From Escherichia phage Msk, in sequence record MW057918: a stretch of 45,053 bases of DNA; one strand, written 5' to 3'. Within the stretch, counting starts at the first letter, position 1. Each line of letters opens with the position of its first letter. Below are positions 6,536 to 37,864 of this stretch, piece by piece. Made by a program: the position numbers and the translations under genes. The notes beneath the pieces are model-generated. The model had not been told where the DNA came from and searched no databases. It saw only the letters and a program-made list of their open reading frames with translations.

Positions 6536-9514
6536 ATGGCAACAAATGAATTAGCTGGAATCACACTAGCCGTAGACGTCTCGCAGGTAGACAGAGGTAC
6601 GCAGTCCCTGCAGAAGTTCAGGCAGGCAAACCAGCAAGCCGCTTCCGGCATTAGTGAGTTCGTCAATGCTGAGCAGGTTGCTAAAAACCAGGCTAGAGAT
6701 ACCGCTCGCGCACTTGCTGAGCAACAAGCATCTTTAGCTAAATTGCAAACGGCTATTGACCCAACTGCGGCAAAGTTCCGTAAGCTGCAAGAGGCAGCGG
6801 TGGGTCTTGATAAGGCGTTTGCTGCTGGCGTAGTTCCTGATGAGGAGTTTTTCCGCTTAGGTGAGGCACTTGAAACGCAGAACGCAAAACTTGCTCGATC
6901 ACGTGCAGCGCTAACTGAAGAGGGTAGGGCAGCAGCTCAAGCCGCAAAGGATAAGGCAAAGGCAAAGGCTGAAGCTGATAGGTTCATTGCGTCACTTGAG
7001 CGTCAGGCTCAGGCGGCAACATTGACGCGTGAGGAGTACTTAAAATTACAGGCTGCTCAGCTTGGCGTAAGTTCTCAGGCAGCGCCTATTATTGACAGAA
7101 TCGCCGATGCATCACAGAAGGCAAACACCCAGCTAATTGCTCAGAGCAAGGCATTTCAACGCTCTGGATTAAGCGCGGGTCAATACAAGGCTGCAATCTC
7201 TCAATTGCCAGCGCAGATTACAGACATTGGGACATCACTTGCTGGCGGCATTCCGATTTGGCTTATTGCAATTCAGCAAGGCGGGCAAATTAAGGATGCA
7301 TTTGGAGGTATTGGTAACACCTTTAGATTCGCGCTAGCAGCCTTAAATCCATTCAATGTTGCTGTTGGGGTTTTGGGTGGCGCGCTTGTTGCTCTAGGTA
7401 TCGGTGCTGCCCAGGCAGAGAGTGAATTCAGAGCATTAAATTCTGCCATTGCGTTCTCAAACAACTCCACAATCGCATCAATCTCGCAGGTTAGAGATTT
7501 GGTTAGCTCTGTTTCTGATGCTACTGATGCAACCAGAGGACTTGTGACTAGCATCGCAACAAGCCTTATTGAGCAAGGGAACCTTACGCTGACGCAGATT
7601 GACAAGATTACTAAATCTACCGCCAGATGGGCGCAGTTGACAGGTAAGGATGCAAAGGAAATTACTGGTTACTATAACCAGATTGCGAGCGACCCAATTC
7701 AAGGACTTGCTGATTTAGACAAGAGGTTTAACTTCCTTACACAGGGGCAGTTAACAACAATTGAAAGATTGAGAGAGACTAGGGGTGAGGTTGAAGCCGT
7801 AACTGCTGCTATTGATATATTTAGCAAATCACAGGAGGCAAACCTTAACGATATTGCAGCCCAGCTTACTCCTCTTGAATTGGCCTGGAATGACTTCAGG
7901 AAGTACATATCTGATGTATGGGATGCAATTAGTCGCAGAACGGTTGGGGCGCTAAACCTGTTTGTTGACGTAATCGCCGGAACAATTGAGCAAATTAGGG
8001 TCTTCATCAACCAGGGTGATGTGCTGATTGGTGAATTCGTAATTAGCGCAACACAGGCACTGCAGAACATCCCCGGCCTTGATGGTGTTGGTGATGATGT
8101 TATCAAGGGGCAGCAGAAGATTATCGATGCAGCTAAGAAGCAAAACATTGAGCTAGAGAAGTCTATCAAGGAGCGCGATGCCAGAATCAGAGAAGGAGAA
8201 CTTGGTTACGTTACTCGCAGAGAAAATCAGAATACCAATGAGCAGTCAGGCACTGATGAGGAGTTTGCAAAAAGGAAGAAAGCACTTCAGGATGAACTTG
8301 ATGCGATCAAGAAGAACAGGAAAGAAGAAAATGGTAGGGTTAAAGAGCAAAGAGACCTTACAATTGGTTACGAATCTGGCGTACTTGCACTACAGGCACA
8401 ACTCAAGGTGCTTCAGGAAAACAGGGATATTGGCGCAGTAATAAGCAATGAGCGCAAGCAGTATCTTCAGGAGGAGGCTAAATTCAGGATTCTTGAGCAG
8501 AGGCAACTTGATGGCTCAATTACCAAAGAGCAAGCAAGGCTTCTAATTGAAAAGGATAAAGTTCTTGCACTCGCAAGGCAGAAAGCTGAGTTAGGCGATC
8601 AGATTGTTTTGCAGGAGCGCGCCAATAAGTTAGCTGAAGATAACCGCAAGAAGATTCTTCAGATTAACAACGAAGCAAGCAATATTAATTTGGGGGCTGG
8701 TTTGTCATCTCGCGAGCAGCAGAGGGCAAGAGAGATTCAGGCTCTCCAGTCCAATCAGGTTAATGCTGGTGGCTCTCTTGATGATTTTGATTTTCAGCAA
8801 TTACTGGAAGCAAGAAAGGAATACTACAAGCAGGAGGATAATCTTAGGTCTGATTGGCAAGCTGGCGTAACATCAACGCTTGCAGACTTGGCTGAGAAAT
8901 ATACAGACTACAATCAGATAGCTAAGGATTTAACTGTTGCGGCATTCGATGGAATTACAGACCAGATTACAAACCTTGTAACCACTGGTGAGACCAACTT
9001 CAGGGAGTTCACCGCAAACATCCTCAAAATGATTGCGAAGATTGCAACTCAGTTACTTTTGGTTAAGGCCATCGAATCAACATTGACTAGTTTTGGTGGT
9101 GGAGGAGGTAACGCGTTTGGCTCAATTGCTTCCGGGTTAGGTTTCGCTGGTGGCGGCTACACTGGTGATGGTGGAAAATATCAGCCAGCAGGAACGGTAC
9201 ACCGAGGTGAGTTTGTATTCACAAAAGAAGCGACAAGCAGAATTGGTGTGAAAAACCTTTACGCACTAATGAAAGGTTACGCGAATGGCGGTGTTGTTGG
9301 TGGCCCTTCTGGTTATGCGAATGGTGGATTGGTTTCTGGAGGCGCAGATGTTAATGTTAGCGGGATTACTGTTAGCGTTAATAGTGGGATTGGAAGCAAC
9401 CCAGAGCAGGCCAAGGCGCTGCAAAATGGCGTTAAGGCAATCGTAGCTGAAGAGATTGCTCAGTCATTCCAGCAGGGGGGCAGAGCTTATCAGTACCTTC
9501 GCGGATTCAACTAA
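6536..9514 (+). CDS. Tail tape measure protein
   Basis: 992-aa ORF, long coiled-coil-type low-complexity regions, Gly-rich C-terminal segment, canonical position after G/GT. Confidence 0.8.
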   Translation: MATNELAGITLAVDVSQVDRGTQSLQKFRQANQQAASGISEFVNAEQVAKNQARDTARALAEQQASLAKLQTAIDPTAAKFRKLQEAAVGLDKAFAAGVVPDEEFFRLGEALETQNAKLARSRAALTEEGRAAAQAAKDKAKAKAEADRFIASLERQAQAATLTREEYLKLQAAQLGVSSQAAPIIDRIADASQKANTQLIAQSKAFQRSGLSAGQYKAAISQLPAQITDIGTSLAGGIPIWLIAIQQGGQIKDAFGGIGNTFRFALAALNPFNVAVGVLGGALVALGIGAAQAESEFRALNSAIAFSNNSTIASISQVRDLVSSVSDATDATRGLVTSIATSLIEQGNLTLTQIDKITKSTARWAQLTGKDAKEITGYYNQIASDPIQGLADLDKRFNFLTQGQLTTIERLRETRGEVEAVTAAIDIFSKSQEANLNDIAAQLTPLELAWNDFRKYISDVWDAISRRTVGALNLFVDVIAGTIEQIRVFINQGDVLIGEFVISATQALQNIPGLDGVGDDVIKGQQKIIDAAKKQNIELEKSIKERDARIREGELGYVTRRENQNTNEQSGTDEEFAKRKKALQDELDAIKKNRKEENGRVKEQRDLTIGYESGVLALQAQLKVLQENRDIGAVISNERKQYLQEEAKFRILEQRQLDGSITKEQARLLIEKDKVLALARQKAELGDQIVLQERANKLAEDNRKKILQINNEASNINLGAGLSSREQQRAREIQALQSNQVNAGGSLDDFDFQQLLEARKEYYKQEDNLRSDWQAGVTSTLADLAEKYTDYNQIAKDLTVAAFDGITDQITNLVTTGETNFREFTANILKMIAKIATQLLLVKAIESTLTSFGGGGGNAFGSIASGLGFAGGGYTGDGGKYQPAGTVHRGEFVFTKEATSRIGVKNLYALMKGYANGGVVGGPSGYANGGLVSGGADVNVSGITVSVNSGIGSNPEQAKALQNGVKAIVAEEIAQSFQQGGRAYQYLRGFN

Positions 9515-16756: not shown

Positions 16757-16800
16757 GTATCGCATCCTTGCGATCAGTGTTTAGCAATTCGTGCTATTTA
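16757..16800 (-). promoter_or_regulatory. Motif-class promoter (TAAATAGCACGAATTGCTAA, 22 bp, TACTAT) for lipoprotein operon
   Basis: Perfect motif on minus strand at 16781-16800, hexamer 22 bp downstream, conserved leader ccatcgaaacga. Confidence 0.5.
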
Positions 16801-17473
16801 TTCTTTCTTTCGCAATTTTAAAGTAATCCGAATCAAGCTCTATACCTATAAAGCTCCTTCTTGTATTGACGCATGCCACGCCAGTGGTTCCGCTACCCAT
16901 GCAGTTATCAAGAACTGTATCCCCTTCGTTTGTATATGTATTAATCAGGTATTCCATTAACGCTACGGGCTTTTGGGTAGGGTGTGCGCCTGTTTCTGTT
17001 GCGAATTCAAGAATTGTGGTTGGGTATCCAGTAACTGTTTGTCTTGTTGTCTTACTGCACTCATTGTAATTTCCGCGATTGGTTCTTGAAACCATCACAT
17101 CCGTTTGCCTTGTCCCTTGCGGGTTGTATGTTGGCTGATTTGCATAAAACACCGCTATATCTTCAGTGTTTATAAGTGGTTGCTTTTTCGCATTTAGATG
17201 TCCAGTAGGTTTTGATTTTTTCCAAATCCAGCAATATTTAAATTCCTTTAGATTGCTTGTTATCAGCGCGGACGTGAAAGGCTGTGCGCAAGTAAGAACA
17301 ACCGCCCCACGGCTTATGCGGCGGTATTGACGCCAAAGTAACCGCAAATCGATGATGACATCCCATCTGTTTCTCGTTGTTCCATACGGCAAATCACATA
17401 AAATAAGGTCTATACTCTTGTCTGGGATATCATTCATCATCTCTAAGCAGTCGCCATTCATTAATTTAATCAT
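16781..17473 (-). CDS. DNA methyltransferase, beta-class N6-adenine/N4-cytosine type (DPPY motif before FxGxG motif)
   Basis: [10 protein letters not shown] (motif IV) near N-terminus, NCMGSGTTG (motif I) near C-terminus, PTQKP segment; no adjacent restriction gene. Confidence 0.8.
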
Positions 17474-17511
17474 TTTCTATCTCTCTCTTCGTGTTTTTGA
17501 TGTGGTAATAA

Positions 17512-17553
17512 TACAGCCGCCGCTGCGGAATGTCTTTAGCTATTCGTGCTATT
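17512..17553 (-). promoter_or_regulatory. Motif-class promoter (variant AATAGCACGAATAGCTAA) for methyltransferase gene
   Basis: Variant motif at 17536-17553 on minus strand, tattat about 23 bp downstream. Confidence 0.4.
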
Positions 17554-17610
17554 GTATACGCGTAATCGATGTAACTCGATGTATACAATTTCATCCGCGG
17601 AAAATGGTAT

Positions 17611-17706
17611 ACGCGCTGTTACGCCAATTTACGCATTAGTTACATTGAAATATCTATATATATCAACCTTTTACTCTTATTATTATTATTATACATATTA
17701 CTGTGT
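17611..17706. repeat. AT-rich intergenic block with (TTA)n microsatellite; homologous to 36971-37073
   Basis: tatctatatatatcaacc...ttattattattatta shared with second locus; several GTATAC palindromes nearby. Confidence 0.6.
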
Positions 17707-17947
17707 ATATCATGTAACTACTTCTATAGAGCGTTCCGGTTATAATTTTAATATCATGTGGATTTATACAGTATTGCGTGGCAGCTATACTAATGCACCC
17801 CCTGCAAGAAACGGTATACACGATATACACGATGGTTACATTTAGCTATAGCTGGGATGAGATGCCATTTTACGTAACAAGTGGCAATGCCTACACGGAA
17901 TTACAATGATTCGCACGTAAACTTAAATCAACGATTGGCAAAACCAA

Positions 17948-17975
17948 TTGGACTGGTTACCGTGCTGAATATATA
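17948..17975 (+). promoter_or_regulatory. Sigma70-like early promoter (-35 TTGGAC, 16-bp spacer, -10 TATATA) for plus-strand operon starting at 18015
   Basis: Hexamers at canonical spacing about 40 bp upstream of first ATG. Confidence 0.4.
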
Positions 17976-18014
17976 GTTAACCCATCTAAAGCAAACAACC
18001 AGAGAGATACAGAA

Positions 18015-18209
18015 ATGACCCACTACATTATCAAAGAGAAAAACAACGCACTGTTCGGTGATTGCTACTTTGGTGGCCCTGCTGGATACACCACAGATAA
18101 GAGTGAAGCTGACAGATTCGAGACTAAAGAAGAAGCCCGAGATGTGCTGACTGGCTACTTCACCGAGGAAGACCTCAAGTCTGTTAAAGTAGTTAAGGTT
18201 AAGGAATAG
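18015..18209 (+). CDS. Hypothetical small protein
   Basis: 64-aa ORF, first gene of plus-strand early operon. Confidence 0.4.
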   Translation: MTHYIIKEKNNALFGDCYFGGPAGYTTDKSEADRFETKEEARDVLTGYFTEEDLKSVKVVKVKE

Positions 18210-19253: not shown

Positions 19254-19403
19254 ATGAAAGTCTACATTGTAACGTCACACGATCAATATGATTACGATAC
19301 AGAAATTGTGTCCGCATTCCTTAGTGAAGAACTAGCAAGTGCATTTATTGACAAGTCAATCTTGCCATGCCTAATGATTGAAGAAGTGGAGGTATCTGAG
19401 TAA
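19254..19403 (+). CDS. Hypothetical small acidic protein (MKVYI family; paralog of 35622-35801)
   Basis: ATG at 19254 downstream of motif promoter; N-terminus MKVYIVTSHDQYDYD resembles MKVYILNGYTNYDGF of minus-strand ORF. Confidence 0.45.
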   Translation: MKVYIVTSHDQYDYDTEIVSAFLSEELASAFIDKSILPCLMIEEVEVSE

Positions 19404-20053
19404 TGCAAATTTCAGAGTCATGCAAATCAATTTTAAACGCGCTGCACACTGCTAAATCGCTATTCGCAAAGGCTGAAAAGTCTAAGCAGAACTCACACCT
19501 TAAGAATAAATACGCTACCCTAGAAGACGTTTTGGCGGCCGTTGAGCCTGGACTTGATGAGTGCGGATTGGTGATGTTCCAGAGTGTGCTTGATGATGAA
19601 CAAACTAATCGCATGAAGGTTGAGACAAAGCTATTTCACGCAGAGTCAGGAGAATGGGTTAGCTTCTTGATGATTGTACCAATCAGTAAGAATGATGCGC
19701 AAGGTTACGGCTCAGCTTTAACATACGCTCGACGCTACGGAATCACGGCAGCTTTAGGTCTTAGCCAGGCGGATGATGATGGTAATCTAGCAGCTAAAGG
19801 TGTTAAAGACTTTAAGAGAGAACTCGAGAAATGCAATAATCTAGATGAGCTTCGTAATGTATGGAAAGAAGCCAAGCAATCACTTGATGCGGCAGGATGG
19901 AAGGTTTTTGAGCCTCACATTATCGAGAGAAAAGCAGAAATCGAAGCAAATGCGATGACTGGCTTTAACCCAGCAACACCAAAGAAAGTTGCAGAAAAAA
20001 GTAGTCCTGAAGAAAAGATTAAAGTAGAATCACAACAAATCGACACGTTCTAA
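19403..20053 (+). CDS. Single-strand annealing protein, ERF-like
   Basis: GYGSALTYARRYG segment and placement between exonuclease and SSB; family assignment from memory of motif only. Confidence 0.45.
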   Translation: MQISESCKSILNALHTAKSLFAKAEKSKQNSHLKNKYATLEDVLAAVEPGLDECGLVMFQSVLDDEQTNRMKVETKLFHAESGEWVSFLMIVPISKNDAQGYGSALTYARRYGITAALGLSQADDDGNLAAKGVKDFKRELEKCNNLDELRNVWKEAKQSLDAAGWKVFEPHIIERKAEIEANAMTGFNPATPKKVAEKSSPEEKIKVESQQIDTF

Positions 20054-20566: not shown

Positions 20567-23015
20567 AATAAATTTTTACATCTGGAGAAATTCCAACGCA
20601 AGTCCAGCGCGAGAACTTGGCATCATAAACGAATGACATTCCAATTTGTCTCCCCTCAGATGGAGTTGTGAATGAGCCAACTCTAAACTTATTGCTAAAT
20701 GAAACGGATGGACGCCGGCCGCCTGAAAGGTTGTAAATTATGAAGTCTATCCTCTGTGCATCTCTTGCGTTATCCTGAACATCAATAACTACAGGACTTG
20801 AATCAATTACAACGGTTGCAAGACTTGTTCTTAGTGGGTTAAATAGAATACTACCACCAGATAGCTGAACCCTTTTTTGAACGGGGTTAGAAGAATCCGT
20901 GTACAACCCTGTGTTTATATTATACAAAGCCTCCCATGAATTCAGTTTTGAGTCATCAATCACTGTTGCATACTGCCCAAATAGTATAGTCCCTTCTACA
21001 TGGTTTCCTGAAGCTCCATTATAAAAATCAAAACCAGAAGCTGATCCACCAACAAACCTATTAGCTCTAGCTCCGTTAACTTGAATTGATGGAGACTGAA
21101 AACCTGACTTCAGGCCATTGAACAAGTTTCCTGTCGCCGTCTTCCTAAGAACGACGTCACCACCAGAGTTGACCTCAAGGTCGCAACCAATAACAGTGTT
21201 AGTTACTGCTGTTATGCCTAGGTCTGACTCATGACCGAAAGAAAACCCATACTTATTTCCCTCGCTGGTTCCACCAATAAATGTCGTATTACTGCAGAAT
21301 GTAGCCTCAATTCCTGATTCTGTTACATGCTCGCAAGTTGGGTTAATAAAAAGATCTGCAGATGTGCCGCGGAAGTTCACAGCGCCAGCCTCTGCGTCAA
21401 TTAATATGCCGTACGTAGGCGTCGTTGTGAAGGTCTCAACGTTACCAGAGCACACAAAGTTATTATGCACGCATAGCTGAGTCCACCAGCAGTGTAAACC
21501 AGCCCTTCTAATGTTCGTAGCCATTAGGTTGTCAAAGCATGATGATATGACACCCCTTAATGAAAAGCCATCACTAGCATACCCATTCCCATCGACAATG
21601 ATGTTGCTCATATATGAGTTGTATGCCCAATAATCTAGGTTTACATCCCTATGATCCATTTGGATGACGTAATCATGAGGTCCGCTAGTTAGTGAGATTC
21701 TTGCGCCTTTCTCACCGATAATTGTTGCTGGCCTCAGAAAGTTTAATGGCTGAGATGTAAGATAATTACCTTTAGGAATATGTATAGCAATAGCGTTGTT
21801 TCTAGATGCCTCAACAGCGGCAAGCAATGCCTGAGTATCATCTGTTACACCATCACCAACAGCGCCAAAGTCCTTCTTAATATCGACATGAGTAAGTAAA
21901 GCGTTTACCTCTGGCTTTGAGTAAACATCAAGATTTGTTCTTGCTGCTGACTTATTTGCAACATCAGAGAAATTCAATGATTTTTGAAAAGTCTCATTTT
22001 TTGAATAAACATCAAGATTTGTTCTTGCTGCTGACTTATTTGCAACATCAGAGAAATTCAATGATTTTTGAAAAGTCTCATTTTTTGAATAAACATCAAG
22101 TAAGTTTCTAGCCCTCGATGCCGTAGCTCCACCTCCGGACTTGCCAGCCTCAACCATCACCATTTCCCTACCTGGTGCATAAACCCTGCTTCCGGGCGCT
22201 CCCACAAACTGAATGTAAATCTCCCTGCTATACTGGTTGCTTGTTGAAGATTGGCCTACAACTCGCAAGGAGTGCGTGGTTGTATTGCTTGACTTTGATA
22301 TTACCTGAATGCATAAAGCAGCAATTGATGTTCCAAATGTTGAGATTATGTCATTTGGAGCATTTATCATTGATGAAACGTTAACCATATAAAGGCCACC
22401 GGATTTAAAAACAAATTCCTGCCAATCAAAATTGCTTATCAATGGCGTAGTGTCTGTCGCCAATCCATATCCGGCAAGAGTTACCAACGTTCCGGCATCC
22501 CCGGCGTTATTAATTGCTTTAATCGTCTGATCTCTTGCTGCAGTGGTCGTGTCTCTTGCACTAATAGCAGTAGCGGCGCTCTCTTCGGCAGCAATCTGGC
22601 TAGCAAGAGCCTCAGCAGCTCCAGTGGTGGATTGTTTTGCAAGCTGCTCGAAGAGAGGCCAGTCGAAAGTGTCTTGACCAATAAATTGCAACAATCCTTC
22701 GATTGATGTCTCCTTTGACTGGTAGTAACGCAAAGTCTCTGCTACATCCTGAGCCAACCCCTGAACGGTAATTCCATCGTGCGCAAGAATTGCATAACCA
22801 GTTCCGGAAGGAACAGTTTCAGAGTTAGGGTTGTAAACATTAATCTGAGTATCGCTGATGATTTCAGAGATGGTATAAATCTTCAGGGGGCTGGTTTTAA
22901 AAATAATGGTTGCACCTACGCGAATAAGTGTAAGCGGTGCTTTCCATGTTGTACCCACGCCAGTTACCTCGCCATTTGCGGCCAGCGACGCTGTTCCTAA
23001 GTCATAAATTGCCAT
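20565..23015 (-). CDS. Tailspike with pectate-lyase-type beta-helix (putative polysaccharide depolymerase)
   Basis: ATG at 23015 with GGAGAA SD; DFGAVGDGVTDDTQAL signature of pectate_lyase_3-type tailspikes; internal perfect 28-aa tandem repeat. Confidence 0.7.
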   Translation of the reverse strand: MAIYDLGTASLAANGEVTGVGTTWKAPLTLIRVGATIIFKTSPLKIYTISEIISDTQINVYNPNSETVPSGTGYAILAHDGITVQGLAQDVAETLRYYQSKETSIEGLLQFIGQDTFDWPLFEQLAKQSTTGAAEALASQIAAEESAATAISARDTTTAARDQTIKAINNAGDAGTLVTLAGYGLATDTTPLISNFDWQEFVFKSGGLYMVNVSSMINAPNDIISTFGTSIAALCIQVISKSSNTTTHSLRVVGQSSTSNQYSREIYIQFVGAPGSRVYAPGREMVMVEAGKSGGGATASRARNLLDVYSKNETFQKSLNFSDVANKSAARTNLDVYSKNETFQKSLNFSDVANKSAARTNLDVYSKPEVNALLTHVDIKKDFGAVGDGVTDDTQALLAAVEASRNNAIAIHIPKGNYLTSQPLNFLRPATIIGEKGARISLTSGPHDYVIQMDHRDVNLDYWAYNSYMSNIIVDGNGYASDGFSLRGVISSCFDNLMATNIRRAGLHCWWTQLCVHNNFVCSGNVETFTTTPTYGILIDAEAGAVNFRGTSADLFINPTCEHVTESGIEATFCSNTTFIGGTSEGNKYGFSFGHESDLGITAVTNTVIGCDLEVNSGGDVVLRKTATGNLFNGLKSGFQSPSIQVNGARANRFVGGSASGFDFYNGASGNHVEGTILFGQYATVIDDSKLNSWEALYNINTGLYTDSSNPVQKRVQLSGGSILFNPLRTSLATVVIDSSPVVIDVQDNARDAQRIDFIIYNLSGGRRPSVSFSNKFRVGSFTTPSEGRQIGMSFVYDAKFSRWTCVGISPDVKIY
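21923..22100. repeat. Perfect 84-bp tandem duplication (2 copies plus 10-bp partial) inside tailspike coding sequence
   Basis: Identical 84-bp units at 21923-22006 and 22007-22090 seen directly. Confidence 0.85.
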
Positions 23016-29851: not shown

Positions 29852-30325
29852 ATGATTTACGTATTTGATATCGATGGAACTATAGCTAATAATGAGCATA
29901 GAAGTAACCTCTTGCCATTCAGCGACCTTCACTTGACTTCAAGTTGGAAGGATTACAATAAAGCCTGTTCTGGAGACTCACCAATAATTCCAATGATAAA
30001 CATGATGAATACGTTATCCGACTCATCGCCAGTTTACATCATGACCTCAAGAAGTGATGAAGTTGAATGGAGGACTCTTGAGTGGCTTAAGGATAATGAG
30101 GTTGAGTATGATTCGATATACATGAGAAGTCGATATGACAACCGAAAAGATTACAAAATAAAAGAGGAATGGCTTAATGAAATCAGTGGTGGCGATAAAA
30201 GCAATGTGATTATTTTTGAAGATAACCCACAAGTAATTAAGCACCTAAGAAGTTGCGGATACACCGTTATGGCTGTATGTGAATATGAAGACCTACCTAA
30301 AGACTGCGAATCTCACGGAGAATGA
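29852..30325 (+). CDS. HAD-superfamily phosphatase (T4 Pnk 3'-phosphatase-like / nucleotidase)
   Basis: Motif I FDIDGT at N-terminus; C-terminal FEDNPQV...GY pattern resembles T4 Pnk phosphatase domain end. Confidence 0.55.
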   Translation: MIYVFDIDGTIANNEHRSNLLPFSDLHLTSSWKDYNKACSGDSPIIPMINMMNTLSDSSPVYIMTSRSDEVEWRTLEWLKDNEVEYDSIYMRSRYDNRKDYKIKEEWLNEISGGDKSNVIIFEDNPQVIKHLRSCGYTVMAVCEYEDLPKDCESHGE

Positions 30326-33101: not shown

Positions 33102-34685
33102 TCACCCCAGCAGTCGTGGATTAATGTAAACTTTATCACCAATCAGGCACGTATAGTTTTTCTCATCAAGCATTGGTAGTAAGTGGTCTTTAATCTTCGT
33201 CATTACTCCCGCTTGACCCTCGAACGGCTTAACCTTGCGAGCAGCTTCATATAGAGACCGGATGCCTACTACGCCTTTCCCATTTTTTACTTGCTTAATC
33301 AGAATATCAATCAGCTTATTCATCTCTGCATTGTCGCCAGCGTGACCCGCAGCGTTGGCAGATGACAAATAAGTCTTGCTAAGTTCCTGGAACATAATTA
33401 CAGCTTCCTGCATTGTATCAAGCTCAATTTCTCTCGACTTCTGAGGGCTACCGCCATTTGGGTTGAACCAGTTACGCACAGTGTGAAGAACCGCCGCAAT
33501 CCTGATTGCCTGCTTATCGAACTTACCCAACGCGCCTCGCAACATTGTGTGTGAATACTTCCCGCCGTCAGCAAGGTGCGGTTCCATTTCCTGACGAGCG
33601 CGGTTGAGATATTTCATTGCTGAATTACTAACTGTCAACTTAACTTCTTGCTCATTCATTATCTCGTGAACTAAACGGAAGTAATCAGCCTTCAACCCGG
33701 CATCAATTGGCTCATAAGTCGATTCGCCATTTTCATCAACGAATACACGCTCGCCCAGGAGTGACTTTTCACGTACAAGCAGGAAACGCTCAGATACACC
33801 GATACCACGCGCGCCAGCGTTCATGATAGCGTTGATTGTCTCATCCTGCGCAATTACAGAGATGCAACCCATAGCTACGAAGCTCATGTTGTTTTCAGCG
33901 TTAGCACGAGCGATAGATACGTTGCCAGCATCCCATGCCTTCAGTACAAGCTCGCTGTTCGTTTTCTTTGATCCGTCACCATAGGTCATGCCAAGTAGTG
34001 AGTTTACACTCGTTGCCTCATCCGAGATTACTGCAAAGTTACCCTGACGATTGTTTATTCGCGCAAGACCTTCCGGTGTGGTATCTGAAACCGGGAAAAC
34101 GATATCGCATAGTTTCTCGAGCTTTTCCTCAAGATCTTCTTTCTCCTCAAAAAGCGATTTCATCTCAGATGGTGACTTTTCCTGCTTCATCTCTTTGGAT
34201 AACGCAGATAGTTTAGCCATAATCTTTTTGCGCTCGCGCTTTCGAACTTCATTCAGTCGCTGAGTCTCGGCAATCATTGGCGCAATAGAAAGTGAGTTAA
34301 TTGCTGATTTACCAGTCGATGGTGGCTGACTCGTTACGACGTAAAGCGAGGTTGGCTGCTGAGTTCCGTGATACTCTACGGTAAAACGTCCAAGCATGGC
34401 AGCGGAAATACACCCCAGGAAGTGCATGTATGCGGACGACTCCGGGAATTGCACGCTCCGAGCAATGTTAGCTGACAGCTTACCAACAACATCAATATCA
34501 TTTCCGAGTGATATTACAGGGTACTTATCATTTGCCGCATCAATCTCGACAGGAGCCTTCCAGAATGATTGAGACTGGCGATAGCCATTTGCATTAATAG
34601 CGACGCGCAAAGGTGGAAGGTTGTCTGCGGCAGCAATTGCCATAACCTGTTCAACAGATAGTTTATCTTCGTTGAAATCAAACAT
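33102..34685 (-). CDS. P-loop NTPase of unknown function (possible replication-associated ATPase, DUF3987-like)
   Basis: Walker A-like SQPPSTGKSA and Walker B-like FAVISDEATS; N- and C-terminal segments duplicated in pseudogene 37864-38283. Confidence 0.4.
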   Translation of the reverse strand: MFDFNEDKLSVEQVMAIAAADNLPPLRVAINANGYRQSQSFWKAPVEIDAANDKYPVISLGNDIDVVGKLSANIARSVQFPESSAYMHFLGCISAAMLGRFTVEYHGTQQPTSLYVVTSQPPSTGKSAINSLSIAPMIAETQRLNEVRKRERKKIMAKLSALSKEMKQEKSPSEMKSLFEEKEDLEEKLEKLCDIVFPVSDTTPEGLARINNRQGNFAVISDEATSVNSLLGMTYGDGSKKTNSELVLKAWDAGNVSIARANAENNMSFVAMGCISVIAQDETINAIMNAGARGIGVSERFLLVREKSLLGERVFVDENGESTYEPIDAGLKADYFRLVHEIMNEQEVKLTVSNSAMKYLNRARQEMEPHLADGGKYSHTMLRGALGKFDKQAIRIAAVLHTVRNWFNPNGGSPQKSREIELDTMQEAVIMFQELSKTYLSSANAAGHAGDNAEMNKLIDILIKQVKNGKGVVGIRSLYEAARKVKPFEGQAGVMTKIKDHLLPMLDEKNYTCLIGDKVYINPRLLG

Positions 34686-36461: not shown

Positions 36462-36640
36462 CAAATAAATGGTAGGCATTCGGCGCATCCAAGTCCATCA
36501 CAGCACAGGAATTCATCCTCTGACTGGAATTGCTTAGCCAAATATATGTCTAACTTTCCGCGCAACACAAGGTCGGTGTAATCTTCGTTAAGCTCAATCA
36601 GTGCGCAATCGTGGCGCAATTCATCTTTATCAATCTTCAT
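36462..36640 (-). CDS. Hypothetical small Cys-rich protein
   Basis: 59-aa ORF translated by eye with CCDGLGCAEC segment. Confidence 0.3.
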
Positions 36641-36970
36641 ATCTATACCCTCGTTGTTGGTGAGTTAACTATAGCCTCGCCACCAGCACATGTCTTTAGC
36701 AAAAAGTGCTATTCATTAGATTTATGTATTGTTGCATATATTGCAATGATTCACATGATTATTGCACATACAGCAATATTGCTTCAGATGCAATGATGTT
36801 TTTGATTGTTGCGGATTGAGCAATTAAGTGGTGAGTGAGTGAATGAAAGATGGATGGACTACCATACAAGTTGATTTTGATTCTTGCTAAGCTACTTTCA
36901 CGCATACACGTTATAAAAGTTATGCCGTGTAGATGCGCCAGCTCCCCGTTGGAATCATGTACGTCTATCA

Positions 36971-37073
36971 CGCTAAATTACGCAATGGTTACATAATAAT
37001 ATCTATATATATCAACCATTTAGTACTATTATTATTATTATTATTATATACGCGTATATAATGTATATAGTGG
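36971..37073. repeat. AT-rich intergenic block with (TTA)6-7 microsatellite and TATACGCGTATA palindrome; homologous to 17611-17706
   Basis: Shared tatctatatatatcaacc-(tta)n block; palindrome atatacgcgtatat seen directly. Confidence 0.6.
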
Positions 37074-37342
37074 ATATTGGATATTGCGATAGTTTTCTAT
37101 GATTTTTTCCTACAAGTGTAGGAATTGGATGACACTGTAGGAATAAATAGGCATATATGGGCCAATGCTCCATGAAAGCCGATGTACAAGCTATACGCAG
37201 TGGTTACATTGAGCTATATCTGGGGTTTGGAACTGAAAAGCGTAAATAAATTGAATTCAACCATAAATAACAATTGATAACATGTAACCTCAATGATACC
37301 ATGCACCCATCTTAACGAGAGCAACCAATCAGGAGTATATCT

Positions 37343-37864
37343 ATGTCAAATCGCATTCAACCAGTAAGCCTTGGTGATGTTATCCGCTACATGGCTAAGC
37401 AGGCACTTAAGGCCGACAACAGGACTTTTCATGCTCCAATCAATCTTATAGCTCGCCAGGTTTACGGGCTAACGTCTGATGATATGGGTCGAATCAGCGC
37501 TGAGGATCTAGATAGTGGTGGCAAATACAGCCTGGCAAAGCTGAAGGCTTCATATGTCTCTAACACGGTTGCCAGGATGCCAGAAATTCAGGCGGCGAAC
37601 GTTCGGGCTAAGCTGTCAATCAAGGACGGAGACTTCGGGGATGATGTTGATGTTCGATGCGCATACATCACCTTGGTTGATGGGGCAATACAAACGGGAA
37701 GGAGAGTTAAAGCCAACAATCAGATTGCACAGAATGCGGTGAACGACTTCAAGGATAGAATCCTTAAGCTGATGCCATCTGTGACAGATTTTGAAGGAGA
37801 TGAGATTACAGGAGCAATCAAAGCAATCAAGATGTACCAAGAAATGATTAAGGAGACAAAATAA
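37343..37864 (+). CDS. Hypothetical protein
   Basis: 173-aa ORF, first gene after large AT-rich intergenic region. Confidence 0.45.
   Translation: MSNRIQPVSLGDVIRYMAKQALKADNRTFHAPINLIARQVYGLTSDDMGRISAEDLDSGGKYSLAKLKASYVSNTVARMPEIQAANVRAKLSIKDGDFGDDVDVRCAYITLVDGAIQTGRRVKANNQIAQNAVNDFKDRILKLMPSVTDFEGDEITGAIKAIKMYQEMIKETK

Follow-up and report, generated by a model that had tools for sequence, protein, structure and literature searches.

The 541-bp non-coding gap between the divergent methylase and gp042 genes of Escherichia phage Msk, together with a partial copy in a second intergenic region of the same genome, probably acts in cis to open the DNA and is most likely a replication origin for a self-loading helicase, a reading based on sequence to which we assign a probability of about 0.55. 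Msk (MSK/OzMSK) is an Rtp-like phage of the Drexlerviridae; the window analysed here is the whole stretch of 45,053 nucleotides in record MW057918, and all coordinates refer to it. According to recent genome papers a replication origin was not found in T1-like phages (PMC7718038, PMC11447400), and a literature search on T1/Rtp-like phages retrieved no mapping of transcripts or of replication. Sequence and comparison establish the anatomy, conservation and duplex instability of the element, the predicted fold of gp067, and a design that recurs beside DUF3987 genes. Of the functions proposed for the gap in a preliminary description, that of a replication origin thereby gains real comparative support (least stable cores, opposed phased arrays, an MCM-like ATPase, distant phages), and that of a regulatory hub is correct in part, the module being bordered by promoters on either side.

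Architecture and conservation of the two loci

Locus 1 (17474-18014) is bordered by the methylase start at 17473 on the minus strand and by the gp042 start at 18015, and all sequence elements that had been listed for it were found (Table 1). The preliminary description had also named a second, homologous intergenic region, and a module is indeed shared with locus 2, but it extends over about 290 bp (17596-17880 versus 36945-37250) in two conserved blocks instead of 80 bp. Each module separates two divergent transcription units, and both are oriented alike with respect to the rightward operons.

Table 1. Coordinates of the features of locus 1, locus 2 and gp067
Feature	Position	Strand	Content
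Leftward TLS-type repeat promoter, locus 1	17508-17552	-	ATAGCACGAATAGCTAAA 17535-17552, AAGACA 17536-17531, -10 TATTAT 17513-17508
Left outer array	17554-17587	-	GCGTA 17560, ATGTA(AC) 17569, ATGTA(TAC) 17579; spacing 9 and 10 bp
GTATAC hexamers	17554, 17581, 17607, 17814
Left inner array	17610-17645	+	TACGC 17610, TACGC 17620, TACGC 17630, (GT)TACAT 17641
AT core	17650-17699	.	19-mer ATATCTATATATATCAACC 17650-17668, IHF-consensus match TATCAACCTTTTA 17661-17673, (TTA)5 17677-17691
tatctatatatatcaacc	17651-17668
cttattattattattata	17677-17694		includes (TTA)5 at 17677-17691
Right inner array	17703-17718	-	GTGTA 17703, ATGTA(AC) 17712; 9 bp apart; aimed at AT core
Nearly invariant block	17719-17762	.	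perfect TATAAT 17741-17746, without good -35
ggtatacacgatatacacg	17813-17831
Block B	17815-17878	+	TACAC 17817, TACAC 17826, (GGT)TACAT 17837 (9, 11 bp), then AGCTATAGCTGGG, then palindromic TTACGTAAC 17870-17878
Proximal rightward sigma70 promoter, locus 1	17948-18014	+	TTGGACT ... TATAGT 17972-17977, leader CATCTAAAGCAAACAAC; score 9.4
gp067 (DUF3987 protein, T1 gp9 homologue)	33102-34685	-	predicted MCM-like AAA+ ATPase, C-terminal winged helix
Leftward TLS-type promoter, locus 2	36668-36712	-	repeat 36695-36712, then AAGACA-17-TATAGT
Repeat region of locus 2	36728-36890	+	ATTGCAAT-type, conserved; locus 2 only, outside shared module
Core module, locus 2	36960-37065	+	plus sites 36960, 36969, 36979, 36990; 19-mer 36999-37017; (TAT)7 37027-37047; right side: palindrome TACGCGTA 37049-37056, minus sites GCGTA 37052 and ATGTA 37061
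Block B copy, locus 2	37185-37244	+	TACAA 37185, TACGC 37194, (GGT)TACAT 37205, then AGCTATATCTGGGG, then inverted GCGTA 37240
Proximal rightward sigma70 promoter, locus 2	37274-37342	+	TTGATA-17-TACCAT, upstream TG, leader CATCTTAACGAGAGCAAC; score 11.0

The module is built from short WTACRY sites, 13 of which occur in locus 1, on the plus strand at 17557, 17610, 17620, 17630, 17641, 17817, 17826 and 17837 and on the minus strand at 17560, 17569, 17579, 17703 and 17712, with the palindromic element at 17870 being additional. Four plus-strand sites on the left of the AT core are opposed to two minus-strand sites on its right, a layout that is the same at locus 2, and the spacing of the left inner array (10, 10 and 11 bp) corresponds to the helical repeat. 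This array shows 91% pairwise identity among relatives; the left outer array, which holds two GTATAC hexamers and the TACGCGTA palindrome, is kept in Braunvirinae and Rogunavirinae, and the right inner array is kept in T1 as TGTATATCGTGTAAC. The nearly invariant block is absent from the homology with locus 2, and the three-site array of Block B lies about 120 bp downstream of the AT core.

The palindromes emphasised in the preliminary description are present and clustered, four of the seven genomic GTATAC copies lying inside the 541-bp gap (binomial P ~7e-7), but a role as the functional unit is not supported: GTATAC is not enriched genome-wide (7 found versus 6.5 expected) and does not occur in locus 2, so that we rejected it in favour of the unit that both loci share. 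The statistically meaningful repeat is GTTACAT/WTACRY (TTACGC, GTTACAT). Seven of 13 genomic GTTACAT copies are located within the two loci (P ~2e-8), the four site-richest 150-bp windows of the genome all fall into them, and the densest window contains 9 sites, whereas 200 local-composition shuffles never gave more than 8. The 19-mer has exactly two genomic occurrences, one per locus, with 0.02 being expected.

Among all 40-, 60- and 100-bp segments of the genome, the AT cores of the two loci rank first and second in duplex instability. Calculated 60-bp duplex stabilities are -55.4 and -58.7 kcal/mol for the cores, followed by -64.5 kcal/mol for the next segment and a genome mean of -80.9 kcal/mol (sd 4.9). 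At 40 and 60 bp the window of lowest stability is contained in the locus 2 core, at 100 bp it surrounds this core, and the locus 1 core ranks second in all three respects. In T1 the two least stable segments are found in the same two syntenic gaps despite little sequence in common; TTACGC and GTGTAACA sites flank them as well, and their cores are without a clean trinucleotide run.

Among seven Braunvirinae the AT core of locus 1 has a pairwise identity of 98.3% versus 87.7% for the adjacent gp042 coding sequence. The (TTA)n tract had been regarded as a microsatellite whose copy number might vary between isolates. When isolates were compared, the number turned out to be locus-specific and nearly fixed: of 12 distinct Braunvirinae phages, 10 have five copies at locus 1, one has four and one has six, while there are six to seven copies at locus 2 and three to four in Rogunavirinae. 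Absence of the shared block from related phages had been named as a refuting observation; 119 phage records contain the module, which occupies the same syntenic position in Rogunavirinae. Motif scans of IMG/VR yielded mostly chance matches in unrelated contigs, and about 17 true homologues were kept after a BLAST screen.

Classical origin signals were examined as well. The only genome-wide match to the DnaA box TTWTNCACA is at 9247, outside both loci, and neither locus contains a GATC site; an oriC/DnaA-type origin was rejected, as clusters of both elements are absent. GC skew does not discriminate, since its minima only follow switches in the direction of transcription.

gp067 and the gaps beside DUF3987 genes

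Modelling of gp067 confidently gave the fold of an MCM-like AAA+ ATPase that ends in a winged helix at the C-terminus, the Foldseek TM-scores to MCM being low (~0.35). Sequence searches of gp067, gp048 and gp049 against the PDB gave no significant match. The gene lies about 2 kb from the module of locus 2 and about 15 kb from that of locus 1. We propose gp067 as the cognate self-loading helicase and as the protein that recognises the sites.

We infer that gp067 binds the sites, that the core is melted and that replication starts at these loci. In such a mechanism the WTACRY sites, 5-7 bp in length and approximately one helical turn apart, with four rightward sites left of the core, two leftward sites right of it and the outer arrays beyond, would be recognised by a phage protein, for which the C-terminal winged helix of gp067 is the best and the Cro/YdaS-like gp049 the second candidate. 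Assemblies on both sides of the core would melt the unstable 19-mer and (TTA)n, the helicase would be loaded at the melted core, and the P4-alpha-like primase and host polymerase would take over, while the divergent flanking promoters would help opening via transcription-driven negative supercoiling.

The design is not confined to relatives of Msk. We sampled distant DUF3987 phages from five lineages (36-43% identity), and in four of them the gap adjoining the helicase operon contains the least or near-least stable 60 bp of the locus. Exact trinucleotide runs of at least four copies, (AAC)11, (TAG)4 and (AAT)4, are located in the gaps of L093, L094 and L099/L100, and the core of L098 is imperfect, AAT/ATA-rich only. 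The four lineages with a readable gap each have lineage-specific short repeats that are restricted to it (P 6e-6 to 1e-13). In the fifth, L097, a (TAA)9 run at the contig end, upstream of the gene, falls into the 60 bp of lowest stability in the locus, and repeats flanking it were not seen. The element is positioned just upstream of the operon in L093, L098 and L099; in L094 it follows the terminator behind the DUF3987 ORF and is not in a divergent promoter gap. The repeats of these lineages (ACCCCAG, GTGGGGAA) are unrelated to WTACRY, which points to a co-evolving phage protein.

A far more tentative extension, drawn by analogy and in our view rather doubtful, would be that these loci represent a previously unrecognised class of origins for DUF3987 helicases in many phages including the T1 family. 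Such origins would combine lineage-specific 5-8-bp iterons with a functional A/T-rich trinucleotide run that may serve as a single-strand track in a three-nucleotide register for an AAA+ ring or filament, analogous to the DnaA-trio, and T1-like genomes would have two of them. The runs seen are (TTA)5-7, (TAA)9, (AAT)4, (TAG)4 and (AAC)11.

T1 belongs to the seven classical T phages, and members of the Drexlerviridae are often encountered in phage therapy collections and in contaminated fermenters. For these phages the analysis provides two precisely located, mutable candidate origin sites and, in the MCM-like DUF3987 protein, a candidate for their recognition, and for unrelated phages a comparative rule, i.e. 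lineage-specific short repeats around an AT/trinucleotide core beside a DUF3987 operon. If the origin reading is true, the self-loading-helicase design of staphylococcal islands reaches virulent coliphages, an MCM-type origin of a bacterial virus becomes open to mechanistic work, and 'ori' should be annotated in place of the spurious ORFs deposited in the gap.

Promoters and alternative readings

Both promoters of the preliminary description were confirmed and specified. Its motif-class promoter is a TLS-type repeat promoter (17535-17552, minus strand, followed by AAGACA-17-TATTAT), predicted to drive the methylase gene, and its sigma70-like promoter is TGGACT-17-TATAGT at 17949-17977, predicted to drive gp042, recE, erf and ssb. 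At locus 2 the leftward TLS-type promoter heads the operon that contains the DUF3987 helicase gene, and the proximal sigma70 promoter is predicted to drive gp003 (DUF7174) and the genes downstream. The TLS-type repeat ATAGCACnnnTTGnTAAA, a family described previously (PMC11447400), matches at 17535-17552 with one mismatch and at 36695-36712 with none; genome-wide there are 24 matches at up to three mismatches versus 6.2 expected, and a TATnAT -10 element lies about 20 nt downstream of each good copy. The copy at locus 1 is conserved in relatives. It is the 21-nt repeat known from intergenic regions of TLS/T1-like phages (aaATAGCACnnnTTGnTAAAA); one transcription-oriented copy marks the left edge of each locus, and the roughly 14 copies make up a promoter-associated family of their own, outside the duplicated module.

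The main rival of the origin reading, which we consider possible although clearly less probable, is that of an operator/promoter hub, in which the AT core would consist of overlapping divergent promoters for host RNA polymerase and the WTACRY arrays of operators or activator sites, for instance for gp049. Such a hub would time the recombination operon at locus 1 and the small-gene and replication operons at locus 2, and it would be compatible with an origin. The placement of both modules between divergent units in a constant orientation is in line with it, as are in silico promoters predicted here by other annotators. The core itself contains sigma70 candidates, a rightward TTTACT-18-CATATT and, in locus 1, a leftward GTTACA-19-TATAAT, with scores of 7-8 that exceed the 99.9th percentile, and a rightward arrangement TTTA(C/G)T-17/18-TATATT or TATTAT with (TTA)n as spacer is positionally conserved at both loci and in Rogunavirinae. 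The four-site array would be located at approximately -96 to -65 of the rightward candidate, a position typical for OmpR-type activators, and the distant phages usually have the element upstream of a replication operon that often begins with a gene for a small HTH protein. However, the flanking genes are already served by the proximal promoters with their higher scores. Moreover, the core candidates have spacers that are conserved as much as their hexamers, the whole core being 98% conserved, unlike the genuine promoter nearby (17948-17977), which served as control and has conserved hexamers and a spacer that differs in 8 of 9 relatives. A hub also leaves unaccounted for the exact trinucleotide runs that recur in four of five other helicase lineages (L093, L094, L097, L099/L100) and the location of the L094 element. 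Even if the module were only an operator/promoter hub, the locus would still be the main conserved control region of T1-like phages.

We consider it unlikely that the loci are platforms for host factors, i.e. host-dependent enhancers or architectural elements with OmpR/RstA on GTTACAT and IHF on the 19-mer. GTTACAT is the exact core of both the OmpR ChIP-exo motif KWWGTTACAT and the RstA box TACATNTNGTTACA of E. coli (PMC5438342, PMC4117788), TTAGTTACAT at 17636-17645 fully matches the OmpR 10-mer, and the exact heptamers of the two loci are arranged head-to-tail about one helical turn apart. Tandem OmpR/RstA half-sites, in contrast, have a 10-bp spacing (GTTACATTTTGTTACAT; TACA-N6-TACA), and here the sites are spaced by 9 or 11 bp and paired with TACGC or TACAC, not with GTTACA. 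Furthermore, conservation of the sites does not extend over the whole phage family, GTTACAT being swapped for ATATACAAT in some homologues of locus 2, and the repeats of the other DUF3987 lineages are unrelated. The case of IHF is similar: of the three exact genomic matches to its consensus WATCAANNNNTTR two form the homologous pair at 17661 and 37010, but the consensus is not evident in T1 and in Rogunavirinae it is lost, with a CCTTATATAATAAGG palindrome in its place. As the consensus is limited to Braunvirinae, an IHF site is doubtful as a conserved feature, and the specific role for a nucleoid protein that had been suggested is not supported.

It is very improbable that the shared module is part of the pac site or another packaging-related element. 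The packaging start reported by PhageTerm, 36,862 (PMC8421802), falls within locus 2, which is at the conventional start of the genome, and several related records begin or end there. The start maps, however, to the ATTGCAAT repeat region, the probable pac region, which is missing from locus 1; the beginning of the shared module lies some 100 bp more to the right, and the position of locus 1 is neither a genome end nor a headful multiple.

Least probable of all, and already largely refuted, is a protein-coding or structured RNA gene: PQ659294 annotates a 99-aa CDS with GTG start (gp041, 17546-17845), which might be an N-terminally extended form of the protein annotated as rtp46 in Rtp, where the ORF is also open, but stops or frameshifts disrupt it in 8 of 9 relatives, the translated product is of low complexity (YSYYYYYTYY), the upstream extension of gp042 varies between 0 and 95 codons across relatives, an Rfam search returned no known RNA family at E <= 1, noise aside, and RNAalifold on 16 diverse sequences predicted zero pairs and no conserved RNA hairpin after Block B. 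The gap had been called gene-free, rightly so because of the low complexity and the interruptions of gp041.

Comparison with known systems

As a replication origin the module most closely resembles those of the staphylococcal pathogenicity islands (SaPIs), whose self-loading Rep helicases, hexameric AAA+ proteins of the SF3 or SF6/MCM class, recognise iterons of five or six nucleotides via a C-terminal winged helix; the 6-12 iterons lie on both sides of an AT-rich centre, at least two per side and in opposed orientation (PMC9371898). Locus 1 has 13 sites of comparable length, four and two of them flanking the core in opposed orientation with outer arrays in addition, and gp067 is predicted to be the corresponding AAA+ helicase with a C-terminal winged helix. 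The SaPI origin is located directly downstream of rep, in contrast to the two copies distant from gp067 in Msk; the SaPI-style position downstream of the helicase ORF is found in the distant phage L094. Further differences are the Gram-negative host, the virulent life style and the conserved trinucleotide run in the AT core, and the iterons of SaPIs have no sequence homology to the sites of Msk, the putative binding sites of gp067.

The satellite phage P4 has two separate cis-acting loci, ori and crr, with common 8-bp repeats in both orientations, spaced by 9-11 bp in AT-rich surroundings, and the primase of Msk shares the zinc ribbon of the P4 alpha protein (E = 4e-12). The type 1 repeat of P4, TGTTCACC, which is bound by alpha, differs from WTACRY/GTTACAT, and crr is an auxiliary site, not a second origin. 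Moreover, alpha is a single primase-helicase-origin-binding protein, and BLASTP detected no sequence similarity between it and gp067.

Inverted initiator-binding elements that flank an AT-rich unwinding element, and several origins per replicon, are also known from the archaeal ORB elements and from oriL/oriR of the Bacillus phage SPP1. With ~20-35 bp the ORB elements are longer, and the protein that binds them is Orc1/Cdc6, which then loads a separate MCM; the SPP1 initiator G38P is unrelated. What these systems have in common with the candidate origins of Msk is the combination of AAA+ and winged-helix domains in initiators and helicases, as the predicted fold of gp067 suggests.

Setting and anatomy of the duplicated module

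All the elements that the preliminary description listed for the divergent gap 17474-18014 (locus 1) were found at their positions. The homology with a second intergenic region, put there at about 80 bp, proved longer, as direct alignment with the other large divergent gap (locus 2) gives ~290 bp in two conserved blocks, A and B, with Block B ~120 bp beyond Block A. GTATAC is not over-represented genome-wide (7 found, 6.5 expected), and 4 of the 7 copies lie in the 541-bp gap (P ~7e-7). The 19-mer ATATCTATATATATCAACC of the AT core occurs exactly twice in the genome, once in each locus, and the two loci hold 7/13 copies of GTTACAT (P ~2e-8). This heptamer belongs to a short repeated site class, WTACRY, whose four richest 150-bp windows genome-wide all fall within the two loci, the richest with 9 sites, whereas 200 local-composition shuffles never exceeded 8. 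In locus 2 only, an inverted or direct repeat, TGTAGGAAT (ATTTTTTCCTACAAGTGTAGGAATTGGATGACACTGTAGGAATAAAT), lies between Blocks A and B (37102-37148) and is partly kept in relatives as TGTCAGAAT.

The window is the complete, rotated genome of an Rtp-like phage (Drexlerviridae), 99.98% identical to vB_ecoS_OzMSK (PQ659294; 8 mismatches and one 1-bp gap). Positions 1-36771 pair with PQ659294 8284-45053; the window is not that exact record, and its coordinates are those published for phage MSK, in which erf has the same numbering (19403-20053; PMC8421802). In the tailspike-like gene gp047, a tandem or overlapping self-similarity of ~100 bp (21916-22100) probably reflects an internal repeat of a beta-helix protein; 22000-22100 and 21916-22016 also align to PQ659294 84 bp out of register (99% and 98% identity). 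To the left of locus 2, small genes and that of the DUF3987 ATPase gp067 form a leftward operon, and to the right of the locus rightward small genes are followed by terminase and structural genes.

Locus 1 had been called gene-free, which held despite the annotation of gp041. Because the gp041 translation is of low complexity, its frame is interrupted in 8/9 relatives and the N-terminal extension of rtp46 (Rtp annotation) is not conserved, a coding gene was ruled out and the gap is taken as non-coding; an Rfam search of it found no family. The small CDSs that PQ659294 carries in the two gaps, gp041, gp001 (36850-36996) and gp002 (37157-37249), all overlap the conserved non-coding module and appear spurious, gp041 being shown to be unconserved.

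Features of the two loci and of the loci of distant DUF3987 phages
Feature	Position	Strand	Description
Locus 1	17474-18014		between leftward DNA methylase (16781-17473) and rightward gp042-recE-erf-ssb from 18015
gp041	17546-17845		99-aa CDS, GTG start, annotated in PQ659294
Extra array, locus 1 only	17560-17583	minus	three sites
Block A, left array	17610, 17620, 17630, 17641	plus	TACGC, TACGC, TACGC, (GT)TACAT; spacing 10, 10, 11 bp
Block A, centre	17650-17699		19-mer, then (TTA)5
Block A, right sites	17703, 17712	minus	GTGTA, ATGTAAC
Block B	17817, 17826, 17837	plus	three sites, then AGCTATAGCTGGG, then palindromic TTACGTAAC
Right-edge sigma70 promoter, locus 1	17949-17977		TGGACT-17-TATAGT; leader type as in TLS-type promoters
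Locus 2	~36640-37343		other large divergent gap, at conventional genome start
Right-edge sigma70 promoter, locus 2	37274-37302		TTGATA-17-TACCAT; leader type as in TLS-type promoters
TLS-type repeat ATAGCACnnnTTGnTAAA	16780, 17535, 19179, 23039, 24082, 24591, 27087, 27297, 30866, 32659, 35855, 36695, 38624, 39670		copies in the window
L093	9391-9423 (run)		gap upstream of operon; core (AAC)11 + AT-rich DNA; 10 × CTTACA/TGTAAG
L094	11373-11384 (run)		gap directly 3' of DUF3987 ORF + terminator; core (TAG)4 + TATTATTATATATATCAAGG, least stable 60 bp of locus; repeats ACCCCA(G)
L097	1-27		(TAA)9 at contig end, ~580 bp upstream of gene, outside 361-bp gap; least stable 60 bp
L098			gap upstream of operon; imperfect AAT/ATA-rich core, least stable 60 bp; 11/11 ACCCCA copies
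L099/L100	5617-5628 (run, L099)		gap upstream of operon; core (AAT)4, least stable 60 bp; GTGGGGAAGG/TTCCCCAC pairs, both sides

Conservation and duplex stability

The module was found in 119 phage records. In the Rogunavirinae its syntenic position is unchanged, between a superinfection-exclusion lipoprotein gene and the rightward operon, and phased WTACRY sites, a TATATA core, (ATT)4-5 and inverted GTATA..TGTAAC are kept in both subfamilies and both loci. Among seven Braunvirinae pairwise identity is 98.3% for the AT core with (TTA)n, 93% for the inverted sites and the invariant block at 17719-17762, 91% for the four-site array, 87.7% for the adjacent gp042 coding sequence and 75% for the spacer between Blocks A and B. 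Comparison of relatives does not support (TTA)n as a variable microsatellite, its copy number being locus-specific and nearly fixed. The AT cores contain two of only three exact IHF consensus matches in the genome; in the Rogunavirinae a palindrome stands in place of the core consensus.

Nearest-neighbour energies over the whole genome rank the two AT cores first and second for lowest stability at 40, 60 and 100 bp, with -55.4 and -58.7 kcal/mol at 60 bp (next lowest -64.5; genome mean -80.9, sd 4.9). GC skew was uninformative on the origin. T1 has the same two gaps, though the common sequence amounts to scraps, and the two segments of lowest stability in T1, 214-273 and 30009-30068, lie precisely there, with phased TTACGC repeats, inverted GTGTAACA/TGTTACA sites and three copies of a ACACGATTA repeat on their flanks. 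T1 is without a clean trinucleotide run.

Promoters at the edges and a probable packaging region

The left edge of each locus carries one copy of a 21-nt repeat, aaATAGCACnnnTTGnTAAAA, described as unexplained in the TLS paper (PMC11447400). The window holds ~14 good copies, every one oriented with transcription and none within the structural gene block, and most are followed ~20 nt downstream by a TATnAT -10 element and then by the conserved leader CATCGAAACGA, which puts the repeat at roughly -33 to -50. Judged by sequence, it thus behaves as a promoter class with the repeat where a class II activator would bind, suggesting a factor-dependent family of early or middle promoters. The right-edge sigma70 promoters score highest in their loci if one sets aside TTTATA-17-TATACT in locus 1 (17763-17791), a candidate with poor conservation; in 8/9 relatives the hexamers of the promoter at 17948-17977 are conserved and its spacer is variable, as expected of a promoter.

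PhageTerm placed the packaging start of MSK at 36,862, within locus 2 (PMC8421802). The surrounding block (36728-36890) contains highly conserved ATTGTTGCA...TTGCAAT-type repeats (three 20-nt copies) and GAGTGAGTGAATGAAAGATGGATGGACTACCATACAAG, and is a probable pac or small-terminase binding region; the T1 end gap has similar ATTGTTGC...ATGCAATGATT repeats.

Possible replication origin or regulatory hub

The preliminary description had offered a replication origin, a regulatory hub or a nucleoid-protein binding region. Opposed arrays, least stable cores and recurrence in distant phages make a two-copy origin served by a self-loading MCM-like helicase the best-supported reading, to which we assign a probability of roughly 55%; the iteron arrays, facing each other, would place the protein to the left and right of a core that melts exceptionally easily. 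The principal alternative is a regulatory hub alone, with WTACRY sites as operators and the AT core as overlapping promoters. Both gaps are undeniably promoter regions and moderate promoter candidates (scores 7-8) lie within the AT core. Three observations argue against a purely transcriptional role, which we consider rather unlikely: the supposed spacer in the core is as well conserved as the hexamers, trinucleotide runs turn up in several lineages, and in L094 a terminator precedes the element. The two readings are not mutually exclusive. The available literature yielded no mapping of transcripts or of replication for this phage family.

The recurrence emerged from the gene neighbourhoods of distant DUF3987 proteins (36-43% identity to gp067; five lineages), where the helicase, a zinc-ribbon primase, an SF2 helicase and often a small HTH gene occur together. 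In 4/5 lineages a 450-565-bp gap with lineage-specific short repeats in both orientations adjoins the operon, and these repeats are confined to the gaps (P from 6e-6 to 1e-13). Beyond those in the table, these genomes have almost no trinucleotide runs of 4 or more copies; the window counts 3 altogether, two of them in the modules. The runs lie in or near the gap adjoining the helicase operon, those of L093, L094 and L099 being flanked by the lineage-specific repeats. The L093 core lies ~250 bp upstream of the third least stable 60 bp of its locus, and no exact trinucleotide run was found in the L098 core. No flanking repeats were seen in L097, where upstream DNA is cut off by the contig end, which falls inside the (TAA)9 run as if the assembly broke there. 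That the repeat sequence shifts with helicase lineage favours a co-evolving phage protein as the recogniser over host OmpR or RstA, even though GTTACAT is exactly the half-site core of these two.

A candidate is gp067, the T1 gp9 homologue, assigned to DUF3987 by Pfam and to helicases by PHROGs. Its AlphaFold2 model from 32 sequences is confident (pLDDT 89.4, pTM 0.87), and every top Foldseek match is an MCM subunit (E down to 4e-6), with low TM-scores attributed to domain arrangement. The primase gp048 shares a zinc ribbon with P4 alpha (E = 4e-12), and gp049 is a Cro/YdaS-like HTH protein scoring under the Pfam threshold.

SaPI Rep proteins are helicases that load themselves and belong to the SF3 or SF6/MCM class; through a C-terminal winged helix they recognise iterons of five or six nucleotides. 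Their origins comprise 6-12 iterons around a central AT-rich region, at least 2 per side in opposite directions (PMC9371898). Block A has this same anatomy of opposed short iterons around an AT-rich centre. In the P4 genome record two separate cis loci, ori and crr, likewise have common TGTTCACC repeats, in both orientations, whose arrays surround AT-rich DNA at a spacing of 9-11 bp.
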